Of a DNA stretch of 64,000 bases, positions 34,266-47,485 are shown piece by piece. The notes under the pieces are model-generated. The model saw only the letters and a program-made list of their open reading frames with translations, had not been told where the DNA came from and did not search any database. Within the stretch, counting starts at the first letter, position 1; each line of letters begins with the position of its first letter. The stretch comes from Candidatus Bathyarchaeia archaeon (lineage in GTDB: Archaea > Thermoproteota > Bathyarchaeia > Bathyarchaeales > Bathycorpusculaceae). The stretch covers positions 32,001-96,000 of the forward strand of contig JBEKSS010000006.1 of the NCBI GenBank assembly GCA_049516875.1. Direction: 5' to 3'. Made by a program: the position numbers and the translations under genes.

Positions 34266-35687
34266 GTGGACGGCGCTGCGAATTTCTCCGGAAAGGAAGA
34301 AATCCTCAAGTTGATTTCAAACAACAACGTAAGAATCCTCAACCTTTGCCATGTTCCCGAAGACGGAAGATTGAAGACCCTGAGTTTCTCAATCGCAAAC
34401 AGAGATAGAGTCAACGAGATTTTAGATTTCGGTGAAAGAGTTGACGGTTCAAGTCTGTTCTCGTTTGTGGAGCCTGGCAAAAGCGATATCTACATAATGC
34501 CCGGCACGGATAGAGCTTTTGTTGATCCATTTTCAACCTTGCCCGCAGTAAACATCATGTGCGACTATTTGGGTGAAAACGGGAAACCCTTGGATATAGC
34601 TCCGAAAACTGTTTTGGTGCGGGCTGAAGAACAGCTGAGTTCTTCAGCACATATCACTCTGAAAGCCCTGGTCGAGCTTGAGTTCTACATAATTGCGAAA
34701 CAGCAGACTGAAGTTCTTTTTCCAGCATGGTCGGACAAGAACTATCATGAATCTGCGCCCTTCGCCAAGTTTCAGGACTTGAGGAATGAAGTTTTAGCGA
34801 CTTTAGACCTTGTGGGCATACCCACAAAATACGCGCATGGAGAAGTCGGTCTAGCTTATGACAAGAACGACACCCTTATGGAACAGCATGAAATAGAGTT
34901 CAAACCACAGAATCTTACCAAGATGGCGGAAACATTAGCGATTGCAAAGTGGGTTATCAGAAACGTTTGCTCCAGACACGGGGTATCTGTCTCTTTCATC
35001 CCCAAGATTGACTTGAACCACGCTGGAACAGGGATGCACATACACGTGTGTGGGCTTAAGAACGGCAACAACGTGGTTTCCAATCCTGACGGAACTCTGA
35101 GCCTTGAAGCGTTGAAGATCATAGGAGGCTTATTGAAGCTCGCACCAAGTCTTGCGGCCTTTGGAAATCCCACGCCGGTATCATACCTGCGGTTCATTGC
35201 ACGCAAAGAATCACCGATGCACATCTGCTGGAGCGCCCGAAACCGTCTGGCTCTAATACGCATACCATTGTGGTGGAGCTTCAAGAAAGCAAGCGAAAAA
35301 GCAGAGAGCTGCAGAGAAACCTTCGAATACAGGGCCCCAGACGCCTTTGCCAATGCTTACCTCCTCTTTGCTGGACTGACCGTGGCAGCGGGTTATGGGC
35401 TGAAGAACTCGAAAGAATCGCTGAAGCTTGCTGAAGACTTGCACATTGAAGCAGCTGAAAACGAAGGCAAGAATCTTGAGGTCTTGCCACGCTCATGCAG
35501 CGAAGCAGTCGAAAATCTTGAGAGAGACAGGCATTATTATGAAGCAACCGGGGTCTTCCCAAAGAGACTCATCGACGAAACTGTGAGAAAACTGAGAGCT
35601 TTCGAAGATAAGAACATTTGGAAAGAGTTGTCCAGCAACCCAGAGAAAATAGAAAAGACAATAATGGAATACATTCACTACGGCTAG
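34266..35687 (+). CDS. Glutamine synthetase-family protein (divergent)
   Basis: VDGSS, ELEFY, EQHEIE, GTGMHIH, RNRLALIRIP, EYRAPD. Confidence 0.9.
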   Translation: MDGAANFSGKEEILKLISNNNVRILNLCHVPEDGRLKTLSFSIANRDRVNEILDFGERVDGSSLFSFVEPGKSDIYIMPGTDRAFVDPFSTLPAVNIMCDYLGENGKPLDIAPKTVLVRAEEQLSSSAHITLKALVELEFYIIAKQQTEVLFPAWSDKNYHESAPFAKFQDLRNEVLATLDLVGIPTKYAHGEVGLAYDKNDTLMEQHEIEFKPQNLTKMAETLAIAKWVIRNVCSRHGVSVSFIPKIDLNHAGTGMHIHVCGLKNGNNVVSNPDGTLSLEALKIIGGLLKLAPSLAAFGNPTPVSYLRFIARKESPMHICWSARNRLALIRIPLWWSFKKASEKAESCRETFEYRAPDAFANAYLLFAGLTVAAGYGLKNSKESLKLAEDLHIEAAENEGKNLEVLPRSCSEAVENLERDRHYYEATGVFPKRLIDETVRKLRAFEDKNIWKELSSNPEKIEKTIMEYIHYG

Positions 35688-35854: not shown

Positions 35855-36002
35855 GACCCTTTTTGGAAAAGAGACTTCAAAGAGAAACTGAGGGTTCCAG
35901 CGTTTGGGCATTTTGTTTGTTGGCGATATTGAGGACGCGAAAACCATAAATGCCTTCACCTTGGTCTAATACAACATCGCTGTGTCAAACCATGTGAAAG
36001 AG

Positions 36003-36662
36003 ATGAGCGGTTTGGTTAAAGTGATATGGCACGGTCATGCGTGCTTCGAACTGCAGGGAGAAGGCGTCACAATAGTGACTGATCCTTTTAAGGGAATTGG
36101 TATTCCGGAGCCTAAAGCGGCTGCTGACATCGTGCTTTGTTCCCATAGCCACCAAGATCACAACAACGTCAAACCGGTCTTGGGGAAAGAGGGACAGATG
36201 CTGGAAAGTTTCGTAGGCTCCAAAAAAGTGAAAGGAGTGTCCATGAAAGGCGTTGCTGCTTTTCATGATGAAACGAAGGGTTCCAAACGCGGGAAAAATA
36301 GCATCTACACCTTCAGCTTGGATGGCGTACAGTTCTGCCACCTCGGAGACTTGGGACACGAGTTATCCTCTGCAACTGTTGAGGAGATAGGAAAGGTCGA
36401 TGTATTGTTTGTCCCTGTGGGAGGATACTTCACCATAGGACCCGAAACTGCCACCAATGTCTGCGAAAAGTTGAAGCCCAAGATAATATTTCCCATGCAC
36501 TATCGGATGCCAAGGCTTCCCTCTATGTTTGACCTGTTGAAGACGGTTGATGATTTCTTGGAGGGAAAGAAAAACATAGAGAGGAATAAAGGGCCTGTCG
36601 TGAACATCGAAGAGCATAAATTGCCTAAGGAAACAAAGATAATTGTTCTGTCCCTAGAATAG
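36003..36662 (+). CDS. MBL-fold metallohydrolase
   Basis: WHGHACF, SHSHQDH, HLGDLG, PMHY. Confidence 0.9.
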   Translation: MSGLVKVIWHGHACFELQGEGVTIVTDPFKGIGIPEPKAAADIVLCSHSHQDHNNVKPVLGKEGQMLESFVGSKKVKGVSMKGVAAFHDETKGSKRGKNSIYTFSLDGVQFCHLGDLGHELSSATVEEIGKVDVLFVPVGGYFTIGPETATNVCEKLKPKIIFPMHYRMPRLPSMFDLLKTVDDFLEGKKNIERNKGPVVNIEEHKLPKETKIIVLSLE

Positions 36663-43835: not shown

Positions 43836-45107
43836 TTAGTCTACTATTCTTCCTTTCTCTGCCACTAGTTTTCCGTCTTTGAAGACTTTCTCTGCTAGGT
43901 TAATGCCGTAGTGATATGCAAAGAACTTGTGATTTGGTGCATCAAAGATGACTATGTCTGCCTTTTTTCCCTCCTCCAAGCTTCCTATTTCATGGGCTCT
44001 CTCTATAGAGTGTGCAGCGTTGATTGTTGATGCTGTAAGCGCCTCCTCTGTGGTCATTCTCATCTGGAGAATTGCAATAGTTATCATCATCTGCATTGAT
44101 TCGCACATGTCTGCCGCGCTCAGATCGGTTCCTAGCGCTATGGGCAGTCTTTTGTTGATGATTTCTCTCGCTTTTGCATACGTGCCCAAATAGCAGAATG
44201 GGGTTGTTGGCAAGAATGTTCCGATTATGCCTTTTTTCACCAGAGCTTCGATTTCCTCGGGTGGTGTGAAGATTAGGTGGTCAGCGGAGATGACTCCCAG
44301 CTCTGCGCCTAGTTTTGCTCCTCCGCTATGAGCCAGCCAGTCAGCATGAATTCTCAACTTCATTCCGTATTTTCTGCCCGCCTCGAGTATTCGCCTAGAC
44401 TGCTCTACGTTGAAGTATCCTTTCTCGCAGAACACGTCACAGTATTCAGCCAGTTTTCTCTTCGCAACTTCTGGAATCCATTTTTTAACTACTTCATCTG
44501 TTAACTGATCAACCTTGTTTTCGTATTCGAAGGGAATGCCTTGAGCCATGAAAGTTGGAATCAAGTCGACTGGATGCATCTCGTTAAGTGCTTTGATTAT
44601 TTCTAGTTGTCTGATTTCGCCTTGAAGCGTCATTTCATATCCGCTTTTCGCTTCTATCGTTGTCGTGCCGTGCAGTAGCATCGTGTCAAGTATTCTGATG
44701 GTTTTTTTGAGCAGTTCTTCTGTGGATGTTTCGCCAGTCTTTTTTAGGGTTGTCGGCATTCCTCCTCCTCTTGCTTTGATTTCCAAGTACGGCGTACCTT
44801 TCACAGCCATCTGCTCAAGTTCTTCCTCTCTTGAACCGGCGAAAACCAGGTGGACGTGAGGATCGATGAGTCCCGGCGTGACGAGTTTACCGCTTGCGTC
44901 TATGACTTCAAACCCTTTTTCAAGCCTGTCCAAGACCTCCTTCGTAGTGCCGACGGCCACTATTCTTCCATCTTCGACTGCGACTGCTCCGTCTTCTATT
45001 ATGGCCAGATCATTCATTTCCTCTTTGATCTGGGGTTTGCAGCTTTTTCCCCTCAGAGTCGCTAGCTCATTTGCGTTGATTATTGCGAAATCAGCTCTTA
45101 TCGCCAT
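43836..45107 (-). CDS. hutI: Imidazolonepropionase-like amidohydrolase
   Basis: PGLIDPHVHLVFAGSR, GTTTIEAKSGY, DVFCEKG, IHAD, SADHL, ALGTD. Confidence 0.88.
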   Translation of the reverse strand: MAIRADFAIINANELATLRGKSCKPQIKEEMNDLAIIEDGAVAVEDGRIVAVGTTKEVLDRLEKGFEVIDASGKLVTPGLIDPHVHLVFAGSREEELEQMAVKGTPYLEIKARGGGMPTTLKKTGETSTEELLKKTIRILDTMLLHGTTTIEAKSGYEMTLQGEIRQLEIIKALNEMHPVDLIPTFMAQGIPFEYENKVDQLTDEVVKKWIPEVAKRKLAEYCDVFCEKGYFNVEQSRRILEAGRKYGMKLRIHADWLAHSGGAKLGAELGVISADHLIFTPPEEIEALVKKGIIGTFLPTTPFCYLGTYAKAREIINKRLPIALGTDLSAADMCESMQMMITIAILQMRMTTEEALTASTINAAHSIERAHEIGSLEEGKKADIVIFDAPNHKFFAYHYGINLAEKVFKDGKLVAEKGRIVD

Positions 45108-45138
45108 GTTTTCTCCTCTTTTCACGGGTATGCGAGCG

Positions 45139-46467
45139 CTACACGTCTAGATACTTCTTTCTTTCCCACTCGTGCACGGTGGCGTTGTAGTCCTTCCACT
45201 CCTTAGTTTTGAGTTCCAGGAATTTTTCGCAGAATGCTTTTCCCAAAGCGTCTTGCAAGCACTTGTCTTTAGAGAATTCGTTCAAAGCATCTCCTAGAGT
45301 TCCGGGAAGCACTCCTATGCCTTTCTTGGCTCTTTCTTTTTCGCTCATCTCGTAAATATCCTCTTCGACAGGCTCTGGAAGCTCAGTTCTTCTTTTGATG
45401 CCATCCAAGCCGGCGGCCAGGATAGCGGCAAACGCAAGGTAGAAATTGCAAGATCCATCCGTGGGCCTGTACTCCAACCTGGTTCTCATCCCTTTTCCAG
45501 GTGGAACCCTGACGAGAACTGACCGGTTATACTTGGCCCACGAAAGGTAGACTGGGGCCTCCCACCCTGGTACAAGCCGTTTGTACGAGTTAACGGACGG
45601 GTTAGTCACGGCTGCTAAAGCCTTTGCGTGAGCTAACAACCCGGCTATGAAATTCAGGGCAGTCTTGCTCAGGCCATAGCTTCCTTTTGGATCATAAAAC
45701 AGATTCTGAGCCTTCTTATCGTTTGTAAGACTGACGTGAGTGTGCAGTCCACATCCATAGCCGCCGTGAAAAGGCTTCGGCATAAAAGAGGCAAAAAGTC
45801 CCCTTCTGGCCGCTGTCATCTTCACAACAAACTTGACCAAGTAAATCGTGTCAGCCATTCTCAGTGCATCCGCATAGGCCAGGTTCAGCTCGGATTTTCC
45901 CGGAGGCACTTCATGATGATGCTTTTCAACCAGAACACCGGCGTTTCTAAGATTCTCCGTAATCTCAAGTCTCAAATCAGCGCCAACATCTGCTGGAGGA
46001 CTAGCCAAATATCCTGCTTCATCGATTAGTCTTATGCTGCCGTCTTCGCCCTTTTTGAAAACGAAATACTCTATCTCGCTGCACGCGTTATACTTGACAC
46101 TGGTCCCCAGGTTCTTCTTGGAATCGTTCACAACCTTCTTAAGTATGAACCTTGGGTCAAGCTCAAAAAGTTTATCTGATTCCGGCTCGTAAATGTCACA
46201 AACCACTCTTGCCACTTTCTGAGGGAAAAGACTGGTTGGCAGAATGGCGAACGTGTCCACGTCCGGCACGAGTTTCAAGTCGCTTTTGCTTATGTCTACC
46301 ATGTCGACGGATGAACCATCCGTGTGTATGCCGTCTTCAGCAACCTTTGACAACATCTCAGAGGGAATCCAAAGAGAGTGCAAGATGCCAGACAAGTCCG
46401 TAAACTGTAACACTATCTCCTTCACGTTTTCCTTTTCAACTATCTTCACAACCTCAGACATGCTCAT
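45139..46467 (-). CDS. Glutamine synthetase type I-like protein
   Basis: DGSS, EIEYF, HHEV, FMPKP..GLHTH, SYKRLVPGWEAP, NRS..RVP, RLEYR. Confidence 0.92.
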   Translation of the reverse strand: MSMSEVVKIVEKENVKEIVLQFTDLSGILHSLWIPSEMLSKVAEDGIHTDGSSVDMVDISKSDLKLVPDVDTFAILPTSLFPQKVARVVCDIYEPESDKLFELDPRFILKKVVNDSKKNLGTSVKYNACSEIEYFVFKKGEDGSIRLIDEAGYLASPPADVGADLRLEITENLRNAGVLVEKHHHEVPPGKSELNLAYADALRMADTIYLVKFVVKMTAARRGLFASFMPKPFHGGYGCGLHTHVSLTNDKKAQNLFYDPKGSYGLSKTALNFIAGLLAHAKALAAVTNPSVNSYKRLVPGWEAPVYLSWAKYNRSVLVRVPPGKGMRTRLEYRPTDGSCNFYLAFAAILAAGLDGIKRRTELPEPVEEDIYEMSEKERAKKGIGVLPGTLGDALNEFSKDKCLQDALGKAFCEKFLELKTKEWKDYNATVHEWERKKYLDV

Positions 46468-46579
46468 TCCAATCCCTCACAGAACATCACCTCTTCTTTT
46501 ATATTATTTTTCTTCTGCATGCGCGCTAGACTTATATTTCGCTGGAATCAGAGCTCCTAGAAGGATTGGAGATTACTGA

Positions 46580-47485
46580 ATGGAGTTTAGGGTAAACGGG
46601 ATTCCAATTGAAGATACTTTCTGTGAGACGTTTACAGTTCGAATCGCCAGGATACTTGTAACCTCTGTAAACAGAAAATGGGCTCTGGAATCAGCCTTGG
46701 AAACCAAAGGCCTTGGCAGATCAGCCACTATTCCACCTTCAGAAGCCTCCATAGAGGCTGAAGCTAAGCCTGAAGAGACTCCCGACGGCAGACCGGGTTT
46801 CATAATCCAGTTCATTGACAGAAAGCCGGAGCCGTTGAAAGAATGGCTCGTAGTCAGAATAAGGAAGGGAATCATGCCCTATCCTAAGACTAGCGTGTTT
46901 GATGTTTTGCCATCGGGAATGGCTGAGGAATTTGTGGATATCAAGGGCACAATCATACAGACCTTCGGAGACGGATTTGAAGAGGAAACCGAGGTTTTCG
47001 GAAAGAAGGTTTTCAAGATACCGAGGATGGACGGTTATTTTCTTGTTGAAAGAAGATTCGGAATCGCGAAAGGCGTGGCTGGTGGCATGTTCCTGATTCT
47101 AGCGAGGTCGGATGAAGCCGCGTTGAAAGCTGCTGAACGGGCTGTTGAGGACACGAAAACCGTTCCTTATGTAGTCGGGAAGTTTGCTGCTTCCGGAACC
47201 AAGGTCGGAGGGAAAAACTACAAGGATGCTATAGCCACAACCAATGATGCATACTGTCCTTGCCTGGCGGGAAACGAGGGGAGCAAGATCCCTGAGGGCG
47301 TGAAATGCGTCTACGAAGTCATAGTCAGTGGATTAAGGCTGGAGGATGTAAGTAGAGCAATGAGAGTCGGCATAGAAAACGCGACAAAGGCTCATGGAGT
47401 GACGAGAATAACCACAGCAAACTATGGTGGAACCTTGGGTAAAGGCAAAATTCATCTACAAAGCTTGTTTGACCTCAAAAGTTGA
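46580..47485 (+). CDS. ftr: Formylmethanofuran--H4MPT formyltransferase-like protein (divergent paralogue)
   Basis: NGIPIEDTFCETF, ETPDGRPG, FGDG, GVAGG, SGTKVG, VYEVIVSG, ANYGGTLG. Confidence 0.85.
   Translation: MEFRVNGIPIEDTFCETFTVRIARILVTSVNRKWALESALETKGLGRSATIPPSEASIEAEAKPEETPDGRPGFIIQFIDRKPEPLKEWLVVRIRKGIMPYPKTSVFDVLPSGMAEEFVDIKGTIIQTFGDGFEEETEVFGKKVFKIPRMDGYFLVERRFGIAKGVAGGMFLILARSDEAALKAAERAVEDTKTVPYVVGKFAASGTKVGGKNYKDAIATTNDAYCPCLAGNEGSKIPEGVKCVYEVIVSGLRLEDVSRAMRVGIENATKAHGVTRITTANYGGTLGKGKIHLQSLFDLKS

Follow-up and report, generated by a model that had tools for sequence, protein, structure and literature searches.

The closest described relatives of the system reported here are the Hut pathway of histidine degradation and the Ftr family of formyltransferases. 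In the Hut pathway, the characterised FTCD enzyme uses tetrahydrofolate. The ordinary Ftr enzyme is a formylmethanofuran:tetrahydromethanopterin (H4MPT) formyltransferase, and Hemmann et al. (2019, PMC6926001) place its active site at the homodimer interface and name a glutamate as the oxyanion-stabilising residue. An ordinary hutHUIG operon is described in PMC13444090, which was the sole match for imidazolonepropionase together with Asgard in our full-text literature searches. The same searches, whose coverage leaves out most subscription journals, gave no description of an Ftr-family enzyme linked to hut genes. Here we report such a linkage in a window of 64,000 nucleotides (contig C6, positions 32001-96000) from a metagenome-assembled genome of the Bathyarchaeia (2.43 Mb, 20 contigs, 97.5% complete). 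Three open reading frames at 43836-47485, which we call HutIX, GSX and FtrX, were identified by scans with family profiles. An earlier note on this DNA, made from the sequence alone, had proposed that FtrX is a formimino- or formyl-glutamate:H4MPT transferase. The core of that proposal is supported by a separate FtrX clade, by conservation of the three genes as a set, by linkage to hut genes in 14 of 29 other loci and by mutual exclusion with FTCD. We consider it fairly probable that the three genes form the distinctive part of a variant Hut pathway, patchily distributed in Bathyarchaeia and Asgard archaea, in which FtrX is a non-homologous stand-in for FTCD and delivers the one-carbon (C1) unit of histidine to H4MPT.

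The features of the locus are as follows.

43836..45125, minus strand: HutIX, 429 aa; amidohydrolase of the imidazolonepropionase family, substrate pocket altered; 401.6 bits with TIGR01224 (cut-off 298)
45139..46467, minus strand: GSX, 442 aa; type-I (I-alpha-like) glutamine synthetase (GS); GlnA model TIGR00653 464.6 bits against 429.15
46468..46579, no strand: divergent spacer between GSX and FtrX, 112 bp; A+T-rich TATA-like boxes facing each gene
46580..47485, plus strand: FtrX, 301 aa; FTR and FTR_C domains; TIGR03119 295.5 bits against 292.6

Results

Gene order in relatives and the FTCD slot

The window was compared with 29 other distinct loci that carry FtrX at an identity of at least 70%. 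Of these, 23 came from a related-locus search and 6 from a genome search, and duplicates had been removed (L058=L019, L059=L029, L066=L027, L067=L028). GSX adjoins FtrX in 27 of the 29 loci, in both Bathyarchaeia and Asgard, and HutIX is adjacent in 24; three more are broken by a contig end. The trio is thus conserved in two phyla. In 14 loci hutU and/or hutH lies within the fetched stretch. The genes FtrX, GSX, HutIX, HutU and HutH form one co-directional operon in L025, the same order is seen in L044 as far as the contig end, and in complete Atabeyarchaeia genomes all five genes lie inside ~10 kb.

The order in L023 and L036 bears directly on FTCD. In these two loci GSX and HutIX are read in one direction and FtrX, HutI2 and HutU in the other, whereas FTCD-bearing relatives have the order FTCD-HutI2-HutU(-HutH). 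FtrX therefore takes the gene slot of FTCD (X-HutI-HutU). The genes that flank L023 (RLI, asparaginase, THUMP and Sua5) are also those that flank the hutI2-hutU locus of the window's own genome, which is now without FTCD. No GS was found in the fetched regions of the FTCD-bearing relatives, so GS travels with FtrX and not with hut genes generally.

FtrX and FTCD across genomes

The distribution of FtrX was followed in even samples of 151 Bathyarchaeia and 201 Asgard genomes. Among the Bathyarchaeia, hutU was found in 28 genomes, FTCD_N in 24 and both in 22, and FtrX is present in none of these 22. Six genomes have hutU without FTCD: G118, G103, G124, G111, G128 and the window's own genome (G000). 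FtrX at an identity of at least 57% occurs only in the last four of them. The switch between FTCD and FtrX takes place within three families of Bathyarchaeia (f1, f4 and f29). Among the Asgard genomes, 11 have FtrX (70-81% identity), and FTCD_N was found in none of these. It was found in 112 of the other 190 (hypergeometric P = 9e-5, a value that is overstated since relatives are not independent). FtrX and FTCD are thus mutually exclusive in both sampled phyla.

Profile searches were also made in a panel of 11 FtrX genomes. hutU was found in all 11 (truncated in G157), hutH in 6, Mch in 10 (G151 gave no match) and FolD in 1, and none of the 11 gave FTCD_N, FGase or a HutG match over its cut-off. 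HutF was searched for in the window's own genome only and was not found there. Together these searches (HutG and FGase in the 11 FtrX genomes, HutF in one) gave no Hut enzyme that would release formamide or formate.

FtrX is comparable to the FT domain of FTCD (PF07837) in gene slot, in mutually exclusive occurrence and, as we read the pathway, in the step that it would catalyse. The two have no sequence relationship, and with PF07837 absent from all 11 FtrX genomes FtrX is an analogue and not a member of that family. FTCD clusters differ too: no GS adjoins them, and their imidazolonepropionase is of the HutI2 type.

FtrX is a separate clade of the Ftr family

FtrX has the two-lobe Ftr architecture over its full length (PF01913, 128.4 bits; PF02741, 148.4 bits). 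It aligns end to end with the Methanopyrus kandleri enzyme 1FTR (264.8 bits, residues 4-297) and retains the position of the catalytic Glu245 of that enzyme (VYEV for VYEI). Its scores are barely above the Ftr equivalog cut-offs (295.5 against 292.6 for TIGR03119; 297.7 against 297 for NF002554). Domains, equivalog scores and catalytic Glu thus place FtrX in the family, whereas its motifs and its grouping in the tree do not. The two motifs read in the earlier note, GRSATIPPSEA and RIRKGIMPYP, are both in the translation, and the canonical motifs that it gave agree with the solved M. kandleri enzyme, which has GTSVIMCPAEAG and RIGQCVMTAPT. In comparison with Ftr/FhcD (1FTR, 2FHJ, 6S6Y), FtrX has GRSATIP and RKGIMPYPK where GTSVI.C and GQCV...T.PT are canonical. 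FtrX also lies in hut clusters and not in C1 clusters.

A quick IQ-TREE analysis of 89 Ftr sequences, with SH-aLRT as the only support measure, placed FtrX in a clade of 26 rows outside canonical Ftr (support 100). Its members are the FtrX core (support 96; 17 rows), two subclades from the Bathyarchaeia families f29 (57% identical to FtrX) and f20 (52-56%), and a singleton. Within the core, sequences of Bathyarchaeia interleave on short branches with those of Asgard (Atabeyarchaeia, Hodarchaeota and Hermodarchaeota), which suggests lateral transfer. The FtrX group is tight: a search of 1.84 billion cluster representatives gave one at 77% identity, the next at 52% and 49%, and the rest at ~40%.

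We then set 130 core FtrX sequences against 63 canonical sequences. This gave 38 positions where a residue kept by at least 90% of the core occurs in at most 10% of the canonical set. These clade-specific residues include K43, R47, P52, W89, K96, Y101, K103 and K201, and the invariant basic residues among them replace T, Q or G of the canonical enzymes. R47, K96, K103 and K201 correspond to T45, Q95, T102 and G203 of the M. kandleri enzyme. R47 and K/R201 are common to the two hut-linked subclades (the core and f29) and are found neither in f20 nor in canonical enzymes. The new basic residues would fit a dicarboxylate donor.

The f20 subclade (five genomes, L047-L051) has no hutU, FTCD or hut neighbours and is without R47 and K201. 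In L047 its FtrX-like gene stands beside genes for RNA polymerase subunits and a CBM96 protein. This subclade probably has a different function.

The rest of the genome

The genome that contains the window holds three Ftr genes. The other two score 373.5 and 249.9 bits with TIGR03119 and 386.8 and 353.8 with NF002554, so that FtrX is the weakest match except for the TIGR03119 score of one copy. The separate canonical ftr that the earlier note had asked about is therefore present: the 373.5-bit gene lies on contig C1 at ~105 kb, beside a creatininase-family gene and eRF1. In the tree, one of the two copies groups with other Bathyarchaeia Ftr (support 98) and the third paralogue with a Methanobacteriaceae gene. 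The earlier note took its idea to depend on FtrX not being the only and canonically grouping Ftr of the genome, and on the trio recurring elsewhere. With two more Ftr genes, a separate FtrX clade and a conserved trio, neither ground for giving up the idea was found.

The third paralogue lies on C1 at ~482-488 kb (L014, 3058-8941) in an operon of PurF-like amidotransferase, PurD-like ATP-grasp, HAD, Ftr and PfkB kinase genes. Genes annotated as Ftr and ribokinase (EhaS and EhaT) close the eha operon according to Kaster et al. (2011, PMC3087415).

The genome has two HutI genes. The second, HutI2, is the more canonical (476.8 bits) and is directly followed by hutU on C1. The window was said to contain no hutH, hutU, hutG, hutF, fwd or mch gene, and this is so for the whole of contig C6; hutU is on C1, and FwdA and Mch are on C2. 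In the expected search for hutH and hutU elsewhere in the genome, hutU was thus found and hutH gave no match. Profile searches of the genome also gave no HutF, FTCD_N (PF07837), FTCD_C (PF04961) or N-formylglutamate amidohydrolase. The one match to the HutG family, a C1 gene that resembles agmatinase, reached 138.8 bits where the cut-off is 229. The supposed absence of FTCD and hutG thus holds at these cut-offs. FwdA, Mch and CdhC are present, which makes an H4MPT-type Wood-Ljungdahl pathway plausible in this organism.

HutIX

HutIX aligns with Bacillus subtilis HutI (2BB0) at 339 bits and retains H80, H82, R89, Y102, Y152, H249 and D324. All four metal ligands (H80, H82, H249 and D324) are among them, its score is above the HutI equivalog cut-off, and its relatives adjoin hutU and hutH. 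In contrast, H185 is replaced by Q, E252 by W and DFNPGS by DLSA-A, and these changes are invariant in the clade: the signature AQG, HADW and TDxSAA is seen in 11 of 11 aligned HutIX sequences. The HutI2 type, which is linked to FTCD, has HADE and TDFNP in all 9 sequences; GAHA is found in 7 of them, and in the other two, L023 and L036, its H is replaced by N. The motifs IHADWL and GTDLS of the earlier note were both found in HutIX, and the canonical ones that it gave are in accord with the solved enzyme, in which they read IHADEI and TDFNPGS. We take H185 and E252 to be among the residues that contact the substrate analogue in 2G3F; these contacts were reportedly described by Yu and colleagues in 2006. 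These presumed substrate contacts, together with the DxNPG loop, are not kept in HutIX.

These replacements had raised the possibility that HutIX is not a HutI enzyme. We do not favour this, since G151 and G152, the latter a complete Atabeyarchaeum genome, each have HutIX as their sole TIGR01224 match together with hutU and hutH. As the sole HutI of these genomes, HutIX most likely still has imidazolonepropionate as its substrate, and the outcome of the reaction may be a different one. The same observation weakens a role as a HutF-like formiminoglutamate deiminase that would follow a canonical HutI. In G124 the single HutI copy is split over two contig ends.

GSX

The best relatives of GSX among solved enzymes are GS of type I-alpha (~400 bits; 4LNI, 7TDP, 8OOL). 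GSX is above the equivalog cut-off for type I GS and keeps the DGSS (ammonium site), ExE, HHE, NRS and ExR motifs, which presumably serve the catalytic metal, ATP, glutamate and ammonium sites. It differs from the type I-alpha enzymes in being embedded in a catabolic operon with FtrX and in a clade signature, namely PGKxE, Y/F for N/A of xGSG (so that Y/F-G-C/A-G is read), PGWEAP, YNRS and a shortened loop. This signature is partly common to the GS of family f29. GSX is 37-42% identical to other canonical GS genes within the same genomes. In the five genomes checked for GS copies, GSX is the sole GS in G152 and G128, and another canonical GS is present in G124, G151 and G153.

In the f29 lineage the cluster is different. 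L045 (G128:C71, 1125-8317) and L046 have a metallo-hydrolase gene and hutU in one direction and, divergently, an FtrX-like gene (57%), an MR/MLE enolase-superfamily gene, a GSX-like GS and an M24/creatinase-N peptidase, with no HutI. No HutI match at E of at most 1e-30 was found in G128 and G111, the genomes with clusters of this type. The persistence of the FtrX-GS pair where HutIX is absent hints at a closer coupling of these two.

The window itself has a second, divergent GS-like gene at 34266-35687 (plus strand), which scores 253 bits with TIGR00653, below the cut-off, and is 27% identical to GSX. To its 3' side, at 35982-36662 (plus strand), lies a Lactamase_B_3 metallo-hydrolase that is 54% identical to the hydrolase adjoining hutU in L045 and L046. 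This hydrolase could be an alternative imidazolonepropionase.

Spacer and other observations

The divergent glnA-ftr spacer is 112 bp long, as the earlier note had it. The 31-bp gap that the note gave between glnA and hutI stands if HutIX starts at the ATG at 45107, six codons in, and does not if it starts at the GTG at 45125, which leaves 13 bp. On our reading of the sequence, TTTATAT-like boxes lie ~40 nt 5' of each start and recur in the spacers of 15 related loci. The L036 spacer has an inverted repeat, GCATGCG-N15-CGCATGC, a related repeat is found in L023, and the window has GCATGCGCGC. This is a possible operator.

Hut clusters of the FtrX and FTCD types in Bathyarchaeia and Atabeyarchaeia have an Asparaginase_2 gene no more than a few kb away (L023, L036, L024, L022, L031, L019, L034, L026, L052 and L057; G000:C1:155124-156131). 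In L069-L071 the hutH match falls into two pieces whose query ranges overlap and which lie ~150-260 nt apart, in L028 only the C-terminal piece of hutH precedes the contig end, and in L035 the FtrX match is likewise split, by ~210 nt. Such broken matches could reflect insertions, frameshifts or assembly errors. In L022 (DATKLC010000087.1), a contig with the label Candidatus Krumholzibacteriaceae bacterium, the trio is of archaeal type and 79-86% identical to that of the window. The contig is probably archaeal and was assigned to the wrong bin.

Discussion

The pathway that we propose would be a known one in variant form, with a new function for the known Ftr family. HutH and HutU would produce imidazolonepropionate, and HutIX, with its remodelled pocket, would open the ring. 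FtrX would then transfer to N5 of H4MPT the formimidoyl (or formyl) group that is left bound to glutamate, with release of glutamate, and the C1 unit would enter the H4MPT Wood-Ljungdahl branch via Mch. The glutamate and ammonia set free would be captured by GSX as glutamine. Gene identities, gene order, phylogeny and complementary distribution are results of comparative genomics, and from them we infer the donor, the acceptor, the direction of transfer and the role of GS. The group that FtrX transfers, formimino or formyl, would presumably come bound to glutamate and not to methanofuran. We regard formiminoglutamate as the better candidate and an N-formyl amide as a real though weaker one. 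Trapping of glutamate and ammonia appears the most likely, though conjectural, role of GSX. The nearby asparaginase genes fit a reading of GSX as part of a nitrogen-scavenging cassette.

H4MPT is the probable acceptor because Mch, Fwd and CdhC are present and FolD is absent. We also considered that the cofactor drove the displacement, with FTCD in folate users and FtrX in H4MPT users. This is unsupported: FTCD-type Bathyarchaeia mostly have Mch and no FolD, so the switch between FTCD and FtrX is not simply one between folate and H4MPT. In eight Bathyarchaeia (G008, G062, G072, G077, G110, G130, G136 and G009) a short FTCD with the FT domain only (open reading frame of ~310-360 aa) stands beside hutI-hutU. 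All eight have Mch and gave no FolD match. The FT-only FTCD of Bathyarchaeia may work with H4MPT.

Several observations weigh against a stand-in for FTCD that feeds H4MPT. Two Bathyarchaeia, G118 (97% complete) and G103 (84% complete), have hutU and yet neither FtrX nor FTCD. hutH was not found in five of the 11 FtrX genomes, among them the window's own, which is 97.5% complete. In 15 of the 29 loci, as in the window, the fetched stretch contains neither hutU nor hutH. FtrX loci without GS and HutIX also exist (L021 and L033), and G157 keeps FtrX with only a truncated hutU (a 252-aa frame below the cut-off). FtrX is still above the NCBIfam Ftr equivalog cut-off, if narrowly. GSX, as the sole GS of two genomes, could be simply a housekeeping enzyme, and we have no mechanistic explanation for a GS in a catabolic operon. 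The clusters contain no candidate for a cyclodeaminase or deiminase, which leaves the step after formimino transfer unexplained; among further conserved genes of the Asgard clusters no cyclodeaminase, deiminase or transporter was found, only ThiN, AIRS-like, PGI, LysRS, Macro-domain and PfkB genes. The presence of Mch without FolD in most FTCD-type Bathyarchaeia tested is a further point of this kind. In L033, on the complete 1.3-Mb chromosome of G157, FtrX (76% identity) stands alone, and this may be a decaying system.

The trio might also be co-adapted to a new chemistry, which we consider rather unlikely. HutIX would then either convert imidazolonepropionate into an N-formyl amide, namely N-formyl-isoglutamine, or deiminate formiminoglutamate, a role that is kept under this reading alone; FtrX would be a true formyltransferase from an amino-acid amide to H4MPT, and GSX would act on the deformylated product or on glutamate and ammonia in an ATP-driven, irreversible reaction. 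Another account, unlikely in our opinion, makes FtrX an ordinary formylmethanofuran:H4MPT formyltransferase isoenzyme that is co-regulated with hut. The C1 unit would leave as formamide or formate via an unrecognised hydrolase, possibly HutIX or another amidohydrolase, and re-enter via Fwd and methanofuran. The equivalog score of FtrX (295.5 against 292.6), its catalytic Glu and its end-to-end alignment agree with this, as does the presence of FwdA. On the other hand, the genome already holds a higher-scoring canonical Ftr (373.5 bits), and FtrX forms a separate clade with invariant substitutions within the canonical motifs. The isoenzyme account also leaves the exclusion of FTCD and the position in the FTCD slot unexplained, and the searches gave no Hut enzyme that would release formamide or formate.

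It is decidedly unlikely, in our judgement, that the locus is only a nitrogen-scavenging gene island of hut, GS and often asparaginase genes, in which FtrX has an unrelated role like other Ftr paralogues. Such an island would accommodate a GSX with all the catalytic motifs of GS, which in G152 and G128 is the only GS present, and the asparaginase genes near hut clusters of both types. Ftr paralogues do occur in other settings: another one of this genome is in an unrelated operon, and an Ftr-annotated gene lies inside the eha operon according to Kaster et al. (2011, PMC3087415). But FTCD-type hut clusters are without GS, so GS follows FtrX; a shared nitrogen regulon does not predict the exclusion of FtrX and FTCD in two phyla; and the FtrX-like and GSX-like genes stay paired in the f29 lineage without HutIX. 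Finally, FtrX may replace FTCD and transfer the C1 unit to tetrahydrofolate or another pterin in place of H4MPT. The FT-only FTCD of Bathyarchaeia with Mch and no FolD makes cofactor use ambiguous there, and G151 has FtrX with no Mch match. Still, Mch was found in 10 of the 11 FtrX genomes and FolD in 1, and to our knowledge all characterised Ftr-family members use H4MPT-type pterins. We thus regard a folate acceptor as very improbable.

Bathyarchaeia and Asgard archaea are abundant anaerobes of sediments and soils, and their metabolism is known almost solely from genomes. Because the FtrX gene is annotated as plain Ftr, the Hut pathway seems to stop at formiminoglutamate in reconstructions. 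If FtrX is the stand-in for FTCD that we propose, histidine carbon would pass straight into the H4MPT Wood-Ljungdahl branch, the Ftr family would have a second class of donor, and FTCD would have undergone a clean non-orthologous displacement. If instead the trio is co-adapted to a new chemistry, the cell would retain histidine's C1 unit as well as its nitrogen, FtrX would be the first of its family to use a donor other than a furan, and amino acids would feed directly into the Asgard Wood-Ljungdahl pathway. If FtrX does stand in for FTCD, the presence of almost the same module in two archaeal phyla would also indicate that an entire catabolic cassette has been transferred laterally.

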